DNA of 64,000 nt from Minisyncoccota bacterium (lineage in GTDB: Bacteria; Patescibacteriota; Minisyncoccia; Phycocordibacterales; UBA1550): assembly GCA_023229865.1 (NCBI GenBank), contig JALNYL010000005.1:4422-68421 (forward strand), read 5' to 3'. Positions 4,263 through 59,817 of this stretch are shown here, in pieces. The translations under genes were made by a program, and so were the position numbers. The stretch's first letter is position 1, and each line of letters opens with the position of its first letter. The notes under the pieces were generated by a model. That model did not search any database and was not told the DNA's origin. It worked only from the letters and a program-made list of their open reading frames with translations.

Positions 4263-6224
4263 ATGTATCTCTACGATAAAAATCGCATCACGTATTTTGC
4301 GGAAACAGATCGTCGCAATAAGCGCGTACCTTTTGGTATTAAAGCAGATGACCGCACGCGTCACATGTACATCATCGGTAAGACGGGTATGGGTAAGTCG
4401 ACCCTTATTGAAAACATGGTGGTGCAGGATATCCAAAACGGGGAGGGTTTTGCATTCATTGATCCGCACGGTAAGTCTGCGGCGCTTCTCCTTGACTACA
4501 TTCCACCAGAGCGTTTGAAGGATGTGATTTATTTCGCGCCATTCGATGTGGAGAATCCTATCTCATTCAACGTGATGGAAGATGTTGGTGCGGATAAGCG
4601 TCACTTGGTTGCCAACGGTCTCATGAGTGCCTTCAAAAAGATTTGGGGACCAGAGACATGGTCGGCACGTATGGAGTACATCCTTATGAACGCGCTCCTC
4701 GCGCTCCTTGAATACCCTGAGTCAACACTCCTTGGTATCAGCCGTATGCTCACCGATAAAGACTATCGAAAGAAAGTTGTCGACAATGTAAAGGATCCAT
4801 CGGTAAAGGCTTATTGGATTGATGAGTTTGCAAAATACAGCGAGAACTATGCAAAGGAAGCGGTTCCAGGTATTCAAAATAAGCTCGGACAGTTTACATC
4901 GAACCCACTCATTCGTAACATCATCGGACAACCGAAGTCATCTTTTGATTTGCGCAAGATGATGGACGAGCGCAAGATTCTCATCGTGAACCTTTCAAAG
5001 GGGCAACTCGGAGAGGGTAACGCAAACCTTCTCGGAGGTATGATCATCACCAAGATTTATCTCGCCGCGATGTCACGCGCGGATTTGACGGAAGGGGAAC
5101 TCAAAAAACTTCCAAACTTTTACATGTATGTGGATGAGTTTCAATCATTTGCAAACGAATCGTTCGCTGACATTCTCTCAGAGGCACGTAAGTACAAACT
5201 CGCGCTTGTGGTCGCGCATCAGTACATCAAGCAGATGGATGAAAAAGTTGCCGATGCGGTTTTTGGTAACGTAGGTACACAAATAATGTTCCGTGTAGGC
5301 GCCCCCGATGCGGAGGTTCTCGAAAAAGAGTACGCCCCAGTCTTCGTCGCTGAAGATATGGTGAGTCTCGGCTTTACGCAGATTTATTTGAAGCTCATGA
5401 TTGATGGTGTTGCGTCACACCCATTTTCTGCGGTAACCCTTGGACCTATTGCCCCTCCTGCAAAATCACTTCGCGAAGAGGTGCTCCGTCTTTCTCGTGA
5501 ACAATATGGTCGTCCCCGCGCGGAAGTTGAAAAAGCAATTGCTGCTTGGTATGGAAGTGCTAGTGCTGTTCCGCCACCTCCTCCATCAATGGAAAAGGAC
5601 ACTCCCCGAGAAGGGACTGCTCCTCGTGCTGATTTTCCTCCTCGCCCTCCGCGCCAGGAAGCACCTTCAGCACCAAGACGCGACGGAAATGCGATGTTTG
5701 CACGCCCTGTACGTGCTGAAAAGCCCCCTGTAAAGCACGAAGAAGCCCCCCGTGCCCCAAAGCTCGAAAAGCCTTTTGCGAACGCGTTTAAGGAGATTTT
5801 GGCGGTTGAGCCAGTTAAGAAGGAAACCCCTGAGGCTATTAGTTTGGCGGACATCCCTCAGAAGCGAGAAGCGCGTACTGTTCCATCGCAACCAAAAGGG
5901 AAGGGCCCTTCAAATGAGGGGTTGAGTAGTCTTAAGGCGGCCCTCGCTGGCGTTCTTGCGGAGACCCCCGCAAAGGCGGAAGAAAAGAAGATTCCTGCTC
6001 CTCGGCCACAACCACAAGAGGTGCCTAAACCAGAATACAAACCTGCAGAACCAAAACCTCAGACACCAGCACCTGCTCCTCAGCAGAATATTTCTGTCGC
6101 GGCTGAAACGACTCCATCTCCCGCAGCATCGGCTCCTCTCCGTGAGCGAGACATTCCAGAAACTCCAAAGCCAAAAGAAGTTCCTGAAGATGTTCTTGCG
6201 GCACTTCTCCGCGACGATGACTAG
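4263..6224 (+). CDS. FtsK/HerA/TraD(VirD4)-superfamily P-loop ATPase with disordered Pro/Ala/Lys-rich C-terminal tail
   Basis: 653 aa; Walker A IIGKTGMGKST, FIDPHG motif, Walker B YMYVDEFQ; C-terminal ~200 aa low-complexity PAPRPQPQEVPKPE repeats. Confidence 0.8.
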   Translation: MYLYDKNRITYFAETDRRNKRVPFGIKADDRTRHMYIIGKTGMGKSTLIENMVVQDIQNGEGFAFIDPHGKSAALLLDYIPPERLKDVIYFAPFDVENPISFNVMEDVGADKRHLVANGLMSAFKKIWGPETWSARMEYILMNALLALLEYPESTLLGISRMLTDKDYRKKVVDNVKDPSVKAYWIDEFAKYSENYAKEAVPGIQNKLGQFTSNPLIRNIIGQPKSSFDLRKMMDERKILIVNLSKGQLGEGNANLLGGMIITKIYLAAMSRADLTEGELKKLPNFYMYVDEFQSFANESFADILSEARKYKLALVVAHQYIKQMDEKVADAVFGNVGTQIMFRVGAPDAEVLEKEYAPVFVAEDMVSLGFTQIYLKLMIDGVASHPFSAVTLGPIAPPAKSLREEVLRLSREQYGRPRAEVEKAIAAWYGSASAVPPPPPSMEKDTPREGTAPRADFPPRPPRQEAPSAPRRDGNAMFARPVRAEKPPVKHEEAPRAPKLEKPFANAFKEILAVEPVKKETPEAISLADIPQKREARTVPSQPKGKGPSNEGLSSLKAALAGVLAETPAKAEEKKIPAPRPQPQEVPKPEYKPAEPKPQTPAPAPQQNISVAAETTPSPAASAPLRERDIPETPKPKEVPEDVLAALLRDDD

Positions 6225-6226
6225 GC

Positions 6227-6385
6227 TAACACCCCTCCCCAATAACTCTTGCACAAAGAATTCAAAAATTTTATGCGAGACGATGAAAAAAACGAGAGGA
6301 ATATCGAGATACTTCGAACGTTTTTTTCGAAGTCGTAGCAAAAATTTTCGGATTATCGTGGATAGGTTATTGGGGAGGGGTGTTA
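6227..6385. repeat. 20-bp perfect inverted repeat (taacacccctccccaataac / gttattggggaggggtgtta) flanking a 119-bp segment with an internal hairpin
   Basis: arms at 6227-6246 and 6366-6385 are exact reverse complements; inner hairpin acttcgaa/ttcgaagt at 6311-6333. Confidence 0.9.
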
Positions 6386-7776
6386 AAACAACACTACTCA
6401 TACTGGTGTTGTTTTTTGCACAGACCGCATCTGCGCAGGTTTTTATAAATGAGATTGCATGGATGGGGACGAACGTATCATCCTCGAACGAATGGATAGA
6501 ACTTTCCAATAGTGGCACGGAACAAGTCTCTCTTGAGGGGTGGATTCTTTCGATTGAAGGGAAAAAAGATATCGCACTTGTGGGGAATATTTCTGCGGGC
6601 GGTTTTTATCTTGTTGAGCGCACAGACGATTCTACGGTGCCGACAGTTGCTGCAGATGTTGTTTCGTCGTTTGGCGCGGGGATCAACAACACGGGAGCAA
6701 TTATCTCTCTTAAAAATACAAGCGGAGCAATCGTTGATCGCGTGGATGGTTCACAGGGGTGGCTTATTGGAGGGAACCAAGCGGGGGATAACACCACAAA
6801 AGATACTGCACAAAAAGGATTGAGTGCTTGGATGACCGGCACACCAACTCCGCGCGGTGCAAATGTTGGTGCATCGTCTCAGACACAAACGACGGTGACG
6901 ACACAGGAAACACCACAAGTGGTAGCCGCCTCTCAGTCATCTGCATTTCCTGTTGAGCCGCAAATTTTTACTGATGCGGGACCTGCGGCTCTCATTGTAT
7001 CAACGGGCGCAACCGTGACATTTTTGGGTCGCGTGTGGGGCCTCAAAAAAGAACCGATTGAAAATGCGCGCATGGTGTGGGCGTTTGGTGATGGCGGAGT
7101 GGCGGAGGGCGCTTCTGTCTCACACGTTTTTTATTATCCAGGAGAATACACGGTAGTACTCGACGCTGCGTCAGGATTTTATGCAGCATCTGATCGTATT
7201 CGTGTAACTGCGATAACCCCTAATATTTTACTACGTACAGGAGGCGATAGCACTCGTTCGTTTGTCGCACTCGAAAATAAAGGCAACGATGAACTCGACC
7301 TTTCTCTGTGGCAAATCGAGTCCGCAGGTAAGAAATTTATTATCCCCAAAAATACTTTCGTTGGCGCAAAGAAAATTCTCACCCTCGCGTCTGAAGTTAC
7401 TAACCTTGTGACACCATCGGGGAGTGAAGTGCTCCTTAATTTCCCAAACGGCACGCGTGTCGGCGCTCAAGCGACCGCAGCCGCTCCTGTTCTCGCAACA
7501 AATACTTTCGCGCCAAAAATAAATTCTGTAGTTCCGCAAGCGCGCGAAAAAGTAGAAGGTGTCCACAGCCAGGAGGCCTCGGTAATCGGTGCTCTCTCTG
7601 ATTCGTCAGCACCTGGAAAAGAAGATGGTCTGTGGCTTTGGTATTCGAGCGCAGCGATTCTCGGGGCGCTGGCTCTTTTGGGGTTGCGAGCAGTGCAGGG
7701 GAGTGGAGAAAAAACAACGTTCACCGCTGACGATTTTGAAATCATTGAAGAAACTGATAACACCGAACCGCACTAG
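6283..7776 (+). CDS. secreted/cell-surface protein with two lamin-tail domains (LTD) and C-terminal TM anchor
   Basis: signal peptide (LLILVLFFAQTASA), FINEIAW...EWIELSN LTD signature twice, C-terminal hydrophobic helix; start uncertain (ATG 6283 or TTG 6370), ORF-track start 5956 rejected because it overlaps upstream gene. Confidence 0.75.
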   Translation: MKKTRGISRYFERFFRSRSKNFRIIVDRLLGRGVKTTLLILVLFFAQTASAQVFINEIAWMGTNVSSSNEWIELSNSGTEQVSLEGWILSIEGKKDIALVGNISAGGFYLVERTDDSTVPTVAADVVSSFGAGINNTGAIISLKNTSGAIVDRVDGSQGWLIGGNQAGDNTTKDTAQKGLSAWMTGTPTPRGANVGASSQTQTTVTTQETPQVVAASQSSAFPVEPQIFTDAGPAALIVSTGATVTFLGRVWGLKKEPIENARMVWAFGDGGVAEGASVSHVFYYPGEYTVVLDAASGFYAASDRIRVTAITPNILLRTGGDSTRSFVALENKGNDELDLSLWQIESAGKKFIIPKNTFVGAKKILTLASEVTNLVTPSGSEVLLNFPNGTRVGAQATAAAPVLATNTFAPKINSVVPQAREKVEGVHSQEASVIGALSDSSAPGKEDGLWLWYSSAAILGALALLGLRAVQGSGEKTTFTADDFEIIEETDNTEPH

Positions 7777-33428: not shown

Positions 33429-33615
33429 TTCTTGTTATTTCTCTGGCGTGCTCGTTAAAAATCTGTATACTATATTAGTAAGTTTCGTGTATTCCTCTGG
33501 CTAGCGACTGCACTCACATATTAGACATTTGTTGGAGCTCGCACTCGCTGGCCAAAAGAGTACAGGAAAAACAGTCTTAAAGTTAAAAGTCTTAAAGTCG
33601 AAAGCCGGAATACAG

Positions 33616-33653
33616 AAAAGAGCGGGATTGCCTTCGGCAATCCCGCTCTTTTC
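33616..33653. terminator. bidirectional terminator (17-bp stem, ttcg loop) preceded by aaagttaaaag motif
   Basis: gaaaagagcgggattgcc-ttcg-gcaatcccgctcttttc. Confidence 0.75.
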
Positions 33654-33944: not shown

Positions 33945-34069
33945 TAATAACATGAAAAAATATTACACAGATTGGAAAACTATAACAATAACTTTTGGAG
34001 TTGCACTTGAGAAAATGGAAAATGGTGACAGCCACTATTGTTTCGTAAATAGAGTGGTATAATTTTCTC

Positions 34070-34744
34070 ATGTCACGTAATGCTCGTGTCGATGTTGGTG
34101 GAGAAATATATCACGTAATCAATCGTGCGAATGGGCGATTTAAAATATTTGATGAAGACAAGGATTATAAACTATTTGAGCAACTTCTTCTTGAAACAAA
34201 AGAACTGAACGGGATGCGTATCCTTGCGTATGTAATCATGCCGAACCATTGGCATCTTGTATTGTATCCCAAAAACGACGGAGATCTTGGTGTGTTTATG
34301 CAACGACTAACCAATGCGCACACAAGAAAGGTTCATGCAAAGACTGGAACAAATGGTAACGGACACCTTTATCAAGGACGCTACAAATCATTTCTCGTTG
34401 ACTCAGAAAATTACCTTCTTTCTGTCATTAAATATGTTGAACGTAATCCGGTGCGAGCAAAGCTTGTCATCAGCTGCGAAGATTGGGAATGGGGGAGCGC
34501 CTATTTTCGCTTAGCTAGAAAGAGAAAAAATGTTGAACTAATTGATCTGCCCCCTATCAACTTACCGATTGATTACAAACAATGGATTAACGCGCCAGAA
34601 AAGCAAGACGAGGTGGATACTATTCGCATTTCAGTAAACAAAAGTGTACCATATGGTGGAGAGGGTTGGGTGGAGAAGATGGTTGTAAAACATAAACTTG
34701 AATCCACTCTGAAATCTCCTGGCCGACCCAAGAAACGAATATGA
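34070..34744 (+). CDS. REP-associated tyrosine transposase / IS200-like Y1 HUH transposase
   Basis: HVINRANGRFKIF, HuH motif NHWHLVL, catalytic YQGRYKSF, YVERNPVRAKLV; tataat promoter at 34055-34060. Confidence 0.85.
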   Translation: MSRNARVDVGGEIYHVINRANGRFKIFDEDKDYKLFEQLLLETKELNGMRILAYVIMPNHWHLVLYPKNDGDLGVFMQRLTNAHTRKVHAKTGTNGNGHLYQGRYKSFLVDSENYLLSVIKYVERNPVRAKLVISCEDWEWGSAYFRLARKRKNVELIDLPPINLPIDYKQWINAPEKQDEVDTIRISVNKSVPYGGEGWVEKMVVKHKLESTLKSPGRPKKRI

Positions 34745-34874
34745 GTACAACAATATTAGACCACACAAAACGCAAAACAATGGTGGCTGTCACCATTTCC
34801 ACAAGAAACGAATATGAGTACAACAATATTAGACCACACAAAACGCAAAACAATGGTGGCTGTCACCATTTCCA
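34729..34874 (+). repeat. perfect 73-bp tandem duplication (2 copies) including last 16 nt of transposase ORF and one hairpin each
   Basis: 34729-34801 identical to 34802-34874. Confidence 0.9.
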
Positions 34875-35664: not shown

Positions 35665-35688
35665 GTGATTGAATGAAAACTTAAATAA

Positions 35689-35722
35689 TACCCCCCGATT
35701 CGCCTATGGCGAATCGGGGGGT
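35689..35722 (+). terminator. intrinsic terminator taccccccgattcgcc-tatg-gcgaatcggggggta
   Basis: same core as 2598 terminator. Confidence 0.8.
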
Positions 35723-35730
35723 ATTTCGCT

Positions 35731-55434: not shown

Positions 55435-55923
55435 ATGAACAATAAGAAAATAATTCTTATAGGTGTGGGAGGTATTATTGCTGCGCTTCTTTGTGTCCTC
55501 TTTTTTAATATGCAAAAGAGTGAGAATCTTTCCCCTCAGTCAGGGGAACAAACAACAATAAGTGCACAACCTGTAAAAACAGATTTTGGCATCAGTGTGC
55601 CAGCCGACTTTCCTGCCGATATTCCTACAGAGAAAGGAGCGAAGGTTGAACAGAGCTATAGTTTAAACTATGCTAACCAGAAGCAGCTCACCATTGTTTT
55701 CCTTTCTGCAAAAACGGTAAAAGAAAATTATAATCTCTATGCAGATTTTCTTAAAAAACAGAATTGGAGCGTTGCCAATACTTACGAAGGGATACCAGTT
55801 TCTTCTCTTTATGCTACAAAGGAAAACAATGACATTAATATAACTATTAGCGAAAACATCTCGACCCCAATGATTAAATCACAGGTAAGTATTAGTGTAT
55901 TAAAAAATGAAAAATCAAATTAA
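55435..55923 (+). CDS. hypothetical membrane-anchored protein
   Basis: N-terminal TM helix, 162 aa. Confidence 0.5.
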   Translation: MNNKKIILIGVGGIIAALLCVLFFNMQKSENLSPQSGEQTTISAQPVKTDFGISVPADFPADIPTEKGAKVEQSYSLNYANQKQLTIVFLSAKTVKENYNLYADFLKKQNWSVANTYEGIPVSSLYATKENNDINITISENISTPMIKSQVSISVLKNEKSN

Positions 55924-57694
55924 TTCAGAATCAAGGTTGAGGGTTTTTCTTATCCACTCTCTGTGGGCAAAGTTTGGTTTGGGTGTTTTAGTAATTGTAG
56001 CCATCTCCTCCTTTTTAAATATTTCTTTTGCGGGGACACAAACATTTACCAATGGTGCTGGTGGCTGGGTTGCAATTCCTACTGGAGTAACAACGGTAAC
56101 TTTTGTTGCTCAAGGAGGGAATGGTTATTCTACCGGAAGTGGAAATGCTGGCGGCGGTGGTGGTGGGGCATTTGCGAGAACTGCCTCAATCCCAGTTATT
56201 TATGTTGGCGGCGGTGGTGGTGGTGTTAACGGCGGAGCAGGGGGTTCAACATCTGGTACTGGTGCTGGGCTTGGTGGATTTTCTATTAGTCCAATACCCG
56301 TTTGGTCACAATATGGGGGTAATGGGACTGAGGGCGTTGGTGGAAATGGGTGGAGCTCTTGGGGGTTCATTGCTGGGGTTGGTGGGATTGGGGATAATTC
56401 GGGAACTATTGGCGCCAGCAATGTTGGCGGCGGTGGTGGAGCTAGTGGCTTTTCTGCTGCTGGGGGCAATGGTGGGGTCCTGGGCAATCCTTATGGAATT
56501 AAATTTGGCGGTGGCGGTGGCGGTGGTTATGGCGGTGGAGGAGGTGGTGTAGGAGTGTATAATCCTAGTGGAGTTAGTGGAGGGACCCCCGCTGGCGGCG
56601 GCGGCAGCTATGCTGCTCCAGGGATGTCAGTCCCTTCTCCTTCTGGAAGATCAATTCTTCTTTCAAATATTGGGAACCCTTCTCAAATCTATCTTGGGAC
56701 AGGCCTTGGGGGTCTTAGTGATAATGGAGTCCGTGCTCAAGGGGGAACCATTACGATTTCTTGGCCCGATCCGGGTACGGTGAATGTTTCTTCAAACGTT
56801 GCCTCCTCGTGGACAATCACTGGGCCTATGACCATTGCGGGGTCGGGGATTTCACAATCTGCTCCAGCGGCTCCAGGTTCGTATACTATTACTTGGGGGA
56901 GTGTTCCTGGATACATAACTCCAACATCGCAGAGTATTTCTCTTACTCCGGGAGGAACGATCTCTTTTAATGGAAATTATATAGCACCCAATACTGCCCC
57001 TGTTGCACCAATAATCTCAGGGCCTATTACTGTTGCCGAAAATACAACGCAAACATATTCATTTGTTGCCACTGATCCACAGGGCGACCAAGTGCGTTAT
57101 GGTGTTGATTGGAATATGGACGGGGTTGCAGAAGTATGGGTCCCAGCTGGAGTATCTTACGTAAACTCTGGAACCTCTCAATCAACAACCTACAGTTGGT
57201 CCACCACGGGGATAAAGACATTCCAAGTCCTTACTCAAGATGCCCCTGGCCTCAATTCTTCATGGGCAACATATACCATTACTGTCACGTGTTCAAACGG
57301 TACCAACAACCCTCCGACTTGTACTCAGTGTCCCGACAATGAGGCTTATCAAACTTCACACTGTGTTGCTTGCGGGGGAACTGGTTGTACCGGGGTCCCT
57401 GGAGGAAGTGTTTCTGACCCAACCGGAGGACTCATTTGTAATAATGGGGCACAATCTCCTGCTTACTGCGCGGACTGCCCCGTTGGAAAAACATTAGTAG
57501 GGGGTGTTTGTGTAGATAATTGTACGAATGGGGCAACGAATCCACCAACTTGCAATGCGTGTTCCTCTGGGTATGAACTTATTCTCGGCGTCTGTACCCT
57601 TATCCCTAGTTGCGACTCTGATAATATCTGTGAAGCAGGGGAAACTATGTCTAATTGCGCCCGTGATTGTAACCCGCAATTTCAGCAGTTCTAG
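55907..57694 (+). CDS. glycine-rich cell-surface protein with PKD/Ig-like middle region and C-terminal cysteine-rich repeats
   Basis: signal anchor, GGxGGG repeats over ~230 aa, then ~13 Cys in CxxC-rich C-terminal 110 aa. Confidence 0.7.
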   Translation: MKNQINSESRLRVFLIHSLWAKFGLGVLVIVAISSFLNISFAGTQTFTNGAGGWVAIPTGVTTVTFVAQGGNGYSTGSGNAGGGGGGAFARTASIPVIYVGGGGGGVNGGAGGSTSGTGAGLGGFSISPIPVWSQYGGNGTEGVGGNGWSSWGFIAGVGGIGDNSGTIGASNVGGGGGASGFSAAGGNGGVLGNPYGIKFGGGGGGGYGGGGGGVGVYNPSGVSGGTPAGGGGSYAAPGMSVPSPSGRSILLSNIGNPSQIYLGTGLGGLSDNGVRAQGGTITISWPDPGTVNVSSNVASSWTITGPMTIAGSGISQSAPAAPGSYTITWGSVPGYITPTSQSISLTPGGTISFNGNYIAPNTAPVAPIISGPITVAENTTQTYSFVATDPQGDQVRYGVDWNMDGVAEVWVPAGVSYVNSGTSQSTTYSWSTTGIKTFQVLTQDAPGLNSSWATYTITVTCSNGTNNPPTCTQCPDNEAYQTSHCVACGGTGCTGVPGGSVSDPTGGLICNNGAQSPAYCADCPVGKTLVGGVCVDNCTNGATNPPTCNACSSGYELILGVCTLIPSCDSDNICEAGETMSNCARDCNPQFQQF

Positions 57695-57751
57695 AAGATG
57701 CAACAAAAATACCGACTTTATTAAAGTCGGTATTTTTGTTGCATCTTCTAG
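57691..57751. repeat. perfect 61-bp palindrome (30-bp arms, 1-nt centre) between convergent genes; probable very stable bidirectional terminator
   Basis: ctagaagatgcaacaaaaataccgacttta-t-taaagtcggtatttttgttgcatcttctag; left arm includes the stop codon of the upstream gene. Confidence 0.9.
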
Positions 57752-57757
57752 TGTTTA

Positions 57758-58759
57758 TTAGTTGAGTTTTACCGCTTTGTAATCAGCTGGTGCCTCTGCG
57801 AGATATTTTTCAAGCTGCTCGCGCGGGAGGAGGCCTTCTTGTGCTCCCACGTACTGCACTACAGACATTGAGTTGATCGGTGCCCATGCGATAGCTTCAG
57901 ATGGGGTCTTCCCAAGAGCGAGTGCTGAGACGAATGCCGATGCAAATGAATCTCCGGCACCTGTGCGCTCGTACGGTGGCTTTGGGTCTGGGTAGATAGG
58001 CATGAACCAGTTGTCGACGCCGTCAAACACATATGCTCCCTTTGGTCCGTCGGTAATAACTACAATCTTTGGTCCGAGGGCTGCAATCATTTTTGCAAGA
58101 TCCTTGCGCTCAATCATTTCGTCCTTCAAAATTTGTCGCGCTTCTTCTACGTTACAGAAGAATACTTCAGTGTGTGCATAAAGATCCTTGAGTGCTTCTA
58201 CGCCGAGCTTGATTTGGAAACCGCCTGGCTGGAATGAAAGCTTGGTCTCAGGGTGCGCTGCGAGGTAGCGACTGATCTCATGATGATACTCGAGTGACTT
58301 CTCGTTGAGCGATGAGAGGTAGAGCCACTTTGGACCAACGTCACCAAGGGGAAGTGTGTAGGGGAAATCTTCATGCTTGATGAGGATAGTGCGCTCGCTG
58401 TCGTACCAGAGTACATAGTGATAGTTGGTTTTGATCCCGTCGTATTCCTTAATGTACTGTGTGCTTACTCCGTCGTTTTTGAGTGATGCGAGACACTTCT
58501 TCCCGTCGTCATCGTTACCGAGGTTGGTGATGAGTGCGCTTTTGAGGCCGAGGCGTGAAGCAGACACGCAGGCGTTCGCGCTGTTGCCTACGGCGTAGCA
58601 AACCTTCACAAAGTCAAAAGGAACTTTTGCGCCAAATGGCATACAGAGTTCACAAGCATTTGTGTCAACGCGACAGGTTGTGTGAGCGTGATCTTCTTTG
58701 AGGCGAATAAATGCATCGACGACCGTGTCGCCAATACCAACGAAATCTAATTGGTCCAT
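57758..58759 (-). CDS. PfkB-family carbohydrate kinase (ribokinase/fructokinase-like)
   Basis: GAGDSFASAFV motif 2 and N-terminal GIGDTVVD. Confidence 0.8.
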   Translation of the reverse strand: MDQLDFVGIGDTVVDAFIRLKEDHAHTTCRVDTNACELCMPFGAKVPFDFVKVCYAVGNSANACVSASRLGLKSALITNLGNDDDGKKCLASLKNDGVSTQYIKEYDGIKTNYHYVLWYDSERTILIKHEDFPYTLPLGDVGPKWLYLSSLNEKSLEYHHEISRYLAAHPETKLSFQPGGFQIKLGVEALKDLYAHTEVFFCNVEEARQILKDEMIERKDLAKMIAALGPKIVVITDGPKGAYVFDGVDNWFMPIYPDPKPPYERTGAGDSFASAFVSALALGKTPSEAIAWAPINSMSVVQYVGAQEGLLPREQLEKYLAEAPADYKAVKLN

Positions 58760-59777: not shown

Positions 59778-59817
59778 CACGAAGGACGGTTTGCCTACGG
59801 CAAACCGTCCTTCGTTG
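59778..59817. terminator. bidirectional terminator (16-bp stem) preceded by aaagttaaaag motif
   Basis: cgaaggacggtttgcc-tac-ggcaaaccgtccttcg. Confidence 0.8.

Follow-up and report, generated by a model that had tools for sequence, protein, structure and literature searches.

What is the function of a long inverted repeat that lies between a gene for a type IV secretion coupling-protein-like ATPase (T4CP) and a gene for an LTD-domain surface protein in a Paceibacteria/Yonathbacteria-type CPR bacterium? The junction belongs to the 64,000-nucleotide stretch of DNA analyzed here (the window). The initial annotation had likened the repeat to an invertible promoter switch, with a long-range RNA stem over the start region or a terminator-like element as alternatives. 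We conclude with high confidence that the repeat is an in-frame, locus-specific hairpin element at the T4CP/LTD junction. As to its role, we tentatively favor a very stable structure at a translationally coupled junction, where LTD would be made by ribosomes coming from T4CP, a reading that derives from the geometry of the junction.

The repeat folds into one long hairpin

The 20-bp perfect inverted repeat described in the initial annotation is real (TAACACCCCTCCCCAATAAC and its exact reverse complement; Table 1), and its arms form the outer part of 46-nt arms that are 74% complementary (6227–6272 and 6340–6385). The enclosed segment does have a hairpin of its own, with inner imperfect arms at 6247–6272 and 6340–6365 and an apical hairpin at approximately 6283–6335. 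In the predicted RNA fold, the whole element becomes a single long hairpin of 159 nt. The region 6215–6440 folds at −91.4 kcal/mol (z = −10.5 relative to shuffles), and the 159-nt element alone folds at −71.3 kcal/mol on the mRNA strand versus −64.7 kcal/mol on the antisense strand. The left arm, and with it the base of the hairpin, begins 3 nt past the last base of the T4CP stop codon (TAG, 6222–6224), as had been stated, and 8 nt past the LTD ATG.

Table 1. Features of the T4CP/LTD junction, in window coordinates.
Feature	Position	Strand	Basis or remark
T4CP: type IV secretion coupling-protein-like ATPase (TrwB/TraD-like)	4263–6224	+	Pfam TrwB_AAD_bind, TraG-D_C, DUF87
LTD/PKD surface-protein ORF	6217–7776	+	Pfam LTD and PKD; start ATG 6217 proposed
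Left arm, perfect 20-bp inverted repeat	6227–6246	.	20/20 complementary to right arm
Spacer, 119 nt	6247–6365	.	itself quasi-palindromic
Conserved core including GAGGAATATCGAGATACTTCGAA	6266–6347	+	alignment to L006/L098 element
Right arm, perfect 20-bp inverted repeat	6366–6385	.	20/20 complementary to left arm
Second small hairpin (AAAACAACAC / GTGTTGTTTT, then T-run)	6385–6421	+	inside signal-peptide codons

A pattern search that allowed up to three mismatches returned only the two arms themselves from the 64-kb window, and 100 dinucleotide-preserving shuffles gave no arm match. When all inverted repeats of the window were compared, the one at 6227–6385 was the only spaced perfect repeat; the other strong ones are tight terminators of the A-tract/stem/T-tract type or the ends of an IS200-like gene.

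The remaining hairpins of the window include terminator-type structures at 2584–2642 and 35687–35725 (also 33615–33653 and 59779–59815) with a near-identical apex (CCCCGATTCGCC nnn GGCGAATCGGGG) and variants of the form ...TTGCC nnn GGCAA..., which may represent either a small family of hairpins or a favored way of building terminators. Between the convergent genes 55907–57694 (+) and 57758–58759 (−) is a perfect palindrome of 30 bp (57691–57751) whose center is a single nucleotide. The only transposase-like gene found in the window, an IS200-like Y1 transposase ORF (34070–34741; Pfam Y1_Tnp), is flanked by 47-nt inverted repeats (34020–34871) containing a hairpin with a 7-bp stem (AATGGTGGCTGTCACCATT), and its right-hand repeat is tandemly duplicated (34752–34798 and 34825–34871). 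This hairpin motif is absent elsewhere in the window and is unrelated to the element at 6227–6385.

The element is carried in frame within the LTD presequence

The T4CP protein is 100% identical to NCBI MCK9344965.1 and has a low-complexity C-terminal tail; it and the LTD protein (NCBI MCK9344966.1) are encoded on a contig of 78 kb. The LTD protein has the layout LTD-PKD-LTD and is predicted to be secreted and anchored at its C terminus. Adjoining this gene pair is a lower-GC (0.39–0.43) surface-glycan island at approximately 8500–31300, with genes for glycosyltransferases, methyltransferases, an ABC-2/Wzt exporter, GDP-mannose dehydratase and epimerases.

Open from 5956, the LTD frame contains several candidate start codons: ATG 6217, which overlaps the T4CP stop (ATGACTAG); ATG 6283 and GTG 6358, both in the spacer; and TTG 6370 in the right arm, which codes for LLGRGV in this frame. 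The overlap of the right arm with a candidate start, pointed out in the initial annotation, is therefore present at TTG 6370, and the likelier start, ATG 6217, precedes both arms. The position at which relatives have their ATG is occupied by GTT (6382–6384), inside the right arm. ATG 6217 is the sole unpaired candidate in the predicted fold. Moreover, an ATG-ACT at or near the T4CP stop is common to the window, to the closest relatives L018/L100 (T4CP 82–83% identical) and to L101, a related locus that has no element and whose stop and start overlap as ATGACTAA. The L101 junction reads ATG ACT AAA ATA..., encoding MTKINFCWVFLIVFFAQTASA and a normal signal peptide; in that of the window, ATG(6217) ACT A precedes the element and AAA ACA ACA... 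follows it, encoding ...KTTLLILVLFFAQTASA. From this comparison, ATG 6217 is most likely the true LTD start.

If so, both arms lie inside the ORF, in a signal-peptide region that is probably cleaved. The presequence from ATG 6217 comprises 71 amino acids, and cleavage is predicted between ASA and Q at 6429/6430. Relative to the empty site of L101, the element is an in-frame insertion of 53–54 stop-free codons after LTD codon 2. The probability of no stop, given the composition, is 0.016 in the LTD frame, and the other two plus-strand frames carry 2 and 4 stops. An in-frame, stop-free insertion suggests that the element is transcribed with both genes and translated in the n-region of the signal peptide. 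A second in-frame case is found in L099, where the ATG abuts the stop and the next feature, within the coding sequence, is an element whose perfect arms measure 18 bp; in the window and in L099 alike, the LTD frame stays open with the spacer in either orientation. We also considered a T4CP–LTD fusion made by frameshifting or readthrough, and dropped it because the far-upstream open LTD frame is unique to this genome.

Public gene models place the start elsewhere. The JGI gene call starts LTD at ATG 6283, and NCBI MCK9344966.1 (window 6457–7776) starts at an internal Met (MGTNV...), so that the annotated protein has no signal peptide, a point that stands regardless of what the element does.

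Immediately downstream of the element is a separate 10-bp hairpin (6385–6415), at the position where L018/L100 have a terminator-like hairpin. We noted that Lys/Arg codons of the signal-peptide n-region (AAA/AGA) are complementary to Phe/Ser/Leu codons of the h-region (TTT/TCT/CTT), and this pairing is visible in the short hairpins of L018, L091 and window 6385–6415. Such complementarity could be a built-in source of hairpins in DNA coding for signal peptides, from which local inverted duplication could be seeded.

No Shine-Dalgarno sequences were seen upstream of genes in the window; without such sites, downstream cistrons appear to depend on stop/start overlap. Most genes, approximately 30 in the window, instead have −10-like boxes (TAGTAT, TACAAT, TATACT, TATAAT; TAnnAT) 0–12 nt before their start, examples being the genes at 1904, 2907, 4263, 10660-, 49354 and 61251. 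This spacing suggests mRNAs with no leader or a very short one.

Unrelated hairpins occupy the same junction in related genomes

We compared the junction across approximately 30 related Parcubacteria loci from genomes and metagenomes (L numbers), all of which keep the gene order T4CP then LTD. In addition to L101, five loci (L001, L002, L009, L019 and L109) have empty junctions in which stop and start abut as TAG-T-ATG or similar (TAGTATG). An element homologous to that of the window (type A) occurs only in L006/L098 among the junctions compared, with perfect 24-bp arms of different sequence and a 110-nt spacer, located between stop and ATG. A second class (type B; L003, L005, L102, L104–106 and L107–108) is 125–165 nt long, has imperfect arms and likewise lies between stop and ATG. 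Short terminator-like hairpins are found within the first LTD codons of L018/L100, L091 and L008. Two further, unrelated structures directly follow the T4CP stop in more distant relatives: a 137-nt hairpin with 13-bp perfect arms in L061 (4093–4232) and a 21-bp G+C-rich perfect stem in L065 (about 4300–4345). We looked for homology among the type A, type B, L099 and L061 elements and detected none. Whatever the function, at least three unrelated long hairpins have colonized one gene junction across related genomes.

T4CP trees place the window with L018/L100 and L101 (empty), and L006 with L109 (empty) and the carriers of type B. Placement differs as well, the element following the ATG in the window and preceding it in L006. 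Type A would thus either have been gained twice or be old with frequent precise loss. With regard to the two genes themselves, the ATPase domain of T4CP hardly varies within the clade (identity at most of residues 1–430), adjacent LTD proteins are at most 60% identical, and T4CP and LTD similarity relationships disagree (for example, window versus L018). The junction is therefore a boundary between a conserved gene and a fast-evolving or exchanged one.

This distribution could also be produced by a palindromic insertion that has no function, whether of mobile origin, like a MITE or a Rickettsia palindromic element (RPE), or derived from local inverted duplication. Such an insertion would survive since the site is permissive, being removed with the signal peptide or lying between stop and start, and its arms would be kept perfect by hairpin-templated repair rather than by selection. 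Close relatives do differ in whether they carry an element, and their empty sites are precise; the junction is shared by at least three element types that are unrelated, and an in-frame, stop-free state is what a survival filter would leave. In several loci, type B elements are flanked by copies of the stop context (TAGT...TAGT in L003 and L107; TAA...TAA in L102), in-frame palindromic insertions are known from Rickettsia (PMC10969869), and the window contains the Y1 transposase gene described above. In addition, the left arm of L006 is colinear with LTD codons 2–8 of the empty-site locus L109 (19/23 identical, p = 0.0015), which hints that a local inverted duplication of the 5′ end of the gene itself can give rise to arms. 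The window arms, however, have no similarity to their own downstream sequence: we looked for such a duplication and found no signal, the L006 arm being the only one that resembles L109 codons. The element is single copy in the 64 kb of the window plus 480 kb of related loci, and selection on pairing is suggested by G·U pairs that are conserved and by compensatory changes across a long divergence. We rejected membership of a MITE family as well, as there is no consistent target-site duplication at the window or L006 copies and the arms are unconserved; a conserved core with unconserved termini is the reverse of what is expected for a MITE recognized by a transposase. On balance, we consider a functionless insertion rather unlikely, though the foremost competitor to a coupled structure.

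The type A element is flipped between genomes but has one orientation in independent assemblies of the same organism

The window interior aligns to the reverse complement of the L006 element with a local score of 55, compared with 22 in the forward direction (shuffles: mean 15.7, sd 2.2, maximum 26). Ungapped in-register identity is 92/158 in reverse versus 67/158 forward, and gapped global alignments give 106 versus 88 matches. Where L006 is asymmetric, the window has the reverse version at 38 positions and the forward version at 13 (p = 6e-4). L006 also folds better as the antisense strand (−68.0 versus −57.1 kcal/mol), so that the better-folding strand is reversed with respect to the window, matching the flipped homology. 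Judged by these comparisons, the type A family is present in both orientations relative to the same flanking genes, and the inverted repeat is shared with related loci as a flipped homologue at the same junction with different perfect arms.

Aligned in the reverse register, 13/62 predicted pairs differ by compensatory changes between the window and L006, by which pairing is maintained. Over the core (6266–6347), the window and the reverse-complemented L006/L098 element share approximately 74% identity, compared with only approximately 37% over the arms. In these alignments, the arms are seen to evolve in concert within a genome, with the core constrained in sequence; arms that are perfect within a genome and differ between genomes would fit arm-to-arm exchange.

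These features raise the possibility of an active inverton at or within the 5′ end of LTD, in which a recombinase or recombination between the arms flips 6247–6365 within the population, with consequences for LTD expression or for the presequence, which would contain ...SCTKNSKILCETMKKTRGISRY... in the forward and ...LSTIIRKFLLRLRKKRSKYLDIPLVFFIV... in the inverted state. The geometry is appropriate, with perfect 20-bp arms separated by 119 bp beside a surface-protein gene, the LTD frame is open both ways in the window and L099, and the homologous element of L006/L098 is opposite in orientation to the same flanking genes, with arm divergence that fits exchange. Furthermore, the imperfect-armed type B never flips (its orientation is constant in 5/5 lineages), whereas the perfect-armed type does, and cwpV (PMC2784873) and flgB (PMC7446863) are precedents for switches without a promoter. 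Other assemblies argue in the opposite direction, as independent assemblies of the same organism never differ in orientation. The window and the Logan contig of SRR18595301 have 0 mismatches over 5540 bp including the element, and orientation is likewise the same in L006 and L098, in L104, L105 and L106, and in L107 and L108. Carriers belong to different subclades beside empty-site relatives, with the element placed differently relative to the ATG; two separate gains, in opposite orientations, would therefore be just as likely as inversion in situ. The self-complementarity of the spacer over its whole length is not needed in an inversion switch.

Promoter, terminator and recombinase searches

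A switch of the kind proposed in the initial annotation would also be expected to carry a signal that depends on orientation. A consensus scan detected no sigma-70-like promoter on either strand in or around the element, and none in the junctions of relatives; weak hexamers resembling a −10 box (minus-strand TAAAAT, and TGATAAAAT in L006) were dismissed, as they are not conserved between the two copies. The terminator alternative fared no better: the stem is followed by AAAACAAC rather than a U-tract, the terminator scan did not report it, and a T-run is present only after the separate small hairpin at 6385–6421. Overall, no orientation-dependent promoter or terminator was found in the segment on either strand. 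ATG 6283 exists in the forward orientation only, and the likely start, ATG 6217, is outside the segment. Among the 43/67 window ORFs scanned with Pfam, there is no tyrosine or serine recombinase.

Of the invertible-promoter interpretation, the inversion-prone geometry stands and is joined by a flipped homologue, but the promoter, the recombinase and a difference in orientation within one organism were not found in these searches. We consider an actively flipping switch at LTD an unlikely explanation. We regard as equally doubtful the variant in which an intragenic switch recodes the LTD presequence or its translation and the junction is a lineage-wide hotspot that recruits hairpins to diversify the surface module.

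We searched for further copies by exact and 3-mismatch matching, blastn(-short) and a covariance model. Within the sequence covered, the element does not belong to a scattered repeat family: neither the window nor 480 kb of related loci yielded a further copy, and an exact search of metagenome contigs for the element gave 0 matches. A single match to the core motif in a viral contig lies inside a phage portal gene and was attributed to chance. No Rfam 15 family matches the element (best 15–20 bits versus thresholds of 53–195), and no Rfam match was obtained at the junctions of related loci.

Several known classes of element were rejected. The R′/R′′ consensus of integron attC sites is not present on inspection by eye, and there is no integrase among the 43 ORFs scanned. 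A REPIN/RAYT origin does not fit arms that are not themselves palindromic and an element in single copy. A conserved peptide encoded by the element was discarded, since homologous nucleotides lie in different frames (L003 versus L005, window versus L006). Finally, the idea that orientation tracks the direction of replication proved uninformative, as the T4CP strand has positive GC skew at every locus.

A stable hairpin may couple LTD translation to T4CP

The long-range RNA stem at the start region, offered previously as an alternative, comes closer to the reading we prefer, that of a stable hairpin at a coupled start. In the proposed mechanism, the hairpin (−71 kcal/mol) would block free initiation on LTD, and LTD would come chiefly from ribosomes that had just completed T4CP and melted the base of the stem. 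The hairpin would thereby tune LTD output relative to T4CP, and it may double as an RNase III or mRNA-stability site. Its perfect arms would make the segment prone to inversion, and inversion or arm-to-arm conversion would keep the arms identical; inversion would not be the regulatory principle.

Several observations weigh against this reading. Many close relatives do without any element, which is accordingly dispensable, and the patchy phylogenetic distribution would be explained just as well if a tolerated or selfish element had been gained and lost repeatedly. Three independent elements have perfect Watson–Crick arms (of 20, 24 and 18 bp) that contain no G·U pair, which points to a process at the level of DNA rather than to selection at the level of RNA. 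The main evidence against a simple function in the sense mRNA for the whole family is the asymmetry of folding. Type B elements, across five lineages, fold 8–29 kcal/mol better as the strand antisense to T4CP and LTD, and their conserved G·U pairs are on that strand (23 G·U versus 6 A·C cells, with three compensatory pairs); among the type A and B elements compared, only that of the window has the mRNA strand as its better-folding strand. Local GC skew does not account for the asymmetry.

The same asymmetry raises the question of whether the functional form is instead the other strand, or single-stranded DNA. The element could then act as an antisense RNA that has a hairpin at its 5′ end, or as a DNA hairpin site specific to one strand, such as an oriT-like or uptake-related site linked to the DNA-translocase-like ATPase, with the window copy in the less common orientation. 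In keeping with this, L006 as well as type B folds markedly better antisense to T4CP/LTD, with the G·U pairs of type B conserved there; the neighboring gene encodes a TrwB/TraD-like DNA-binding ATPase; and the direction of the asymmetry is, in part by inference, opposite to that of a C-to-T bias on a G-rich coding strand. However, no promoter or terminator consensus was found on the antisense strand, no relaxase was found and no conserved motif resembling a nick site was identified, and the better-folding strand of the window is the sense strand. Because types A and B have no detectable homology, extrapolation from one to the other is weak. We consider a role of the other strand very unlikely for this element.

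The interest of the locus depends on which reading holds. If the hairpin controls the coupling between the ATPase and the surface protein, it would be an example of gene regulation in organisms without Shine-Dalgarno sites, and the CPR organisms concerned are almost unstudied experimentally. True flipping would mean that a CPR bacterium phase-varies a module that probably takes part in host contact or DNA traffic, and a true switch would diversify the expression of a cell-surface module used in an episymbiotic lifestyle. Whatever its function, the element indicates that palindromic DNA can ride in frame within a signal peptide.

Comparison with known systems

In translational coupling by stop/start overlap, a stem just past the downstream start is opened only by terminating ribosomes, and the classical cases involve short local stems. 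The T4CP/LTD junction resembles these cases in that the LTD ATG overlaps the T4CP stop and a stable stem follows a few nucleotides downstream. It differs in that the stem is a translated quasi-palindrome of 159 nt and in that coupling is here deduced from the arrangement.

Among invertible elements, the closest parallels are cwpV and flgB of C. difficile. Their invertible segment, 195 or 154 bp long and with 21-bp inverted repeats at its ends, separates the promoter from the ORF and contains neither of them; control is exerted once transcription has initiated, by way of RNA structure or Rho. Cultures contain both orientations, and RecV has been identified as the recombinase (PMC2784873, PMC7446863, PMC5386303). 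The window element shares with them a short, promoter-less segment bounded by inverted repeats at a gene for a surface structure. In contrast, their repeats are imperfect and their spacer has no hairpin, whereas the window element has a self-complementary spacer and lies inside an ORF; here, no orientation-specific terminator, recombinase (43/67 ORFs) or inversion within the population was found. Intragenic invertons, which are defined from reads showing both orientations (PMC10028968), likewise have inverted repeats within a coding sequence, and inversion at LTD would recode without truncation. The window element differs from them in that its orientation varies only between genomes and in that the recoded part is a presequence, which is probably cleaved.

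Mobile palindromes provide a different comparison. Correia (CREE) and ERIC MITEs are high-copy elements with conserved terminal repeats, a TA target duplication and built-in promoters; for Correia elements, the long hairpin in co-transcribed mRNA is a target of RNase III in Neisseria, and inversion in situ has been reported (PMC10969869). At 159 bp, the window element falls within their size range of 100–160 bp, and it has terminal inverted repeats that form a long hairpin. Unlike in these families, the arms are its least conserved part, and further copies, a TA duplication, a promoter and conserved termini were not found in the sequences searched. The RPEs of Rickettsia are multi-copy families scattered over many genes (reviewed in PMC10969869). 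The window element resembles an RPE in being a palindrome of approximately 150 bp that is in frame, free of stops, translated and located at a structurally permissive position; it differs in being single copy in the searched sequence and, together with its analogues, in being confined to one junction.
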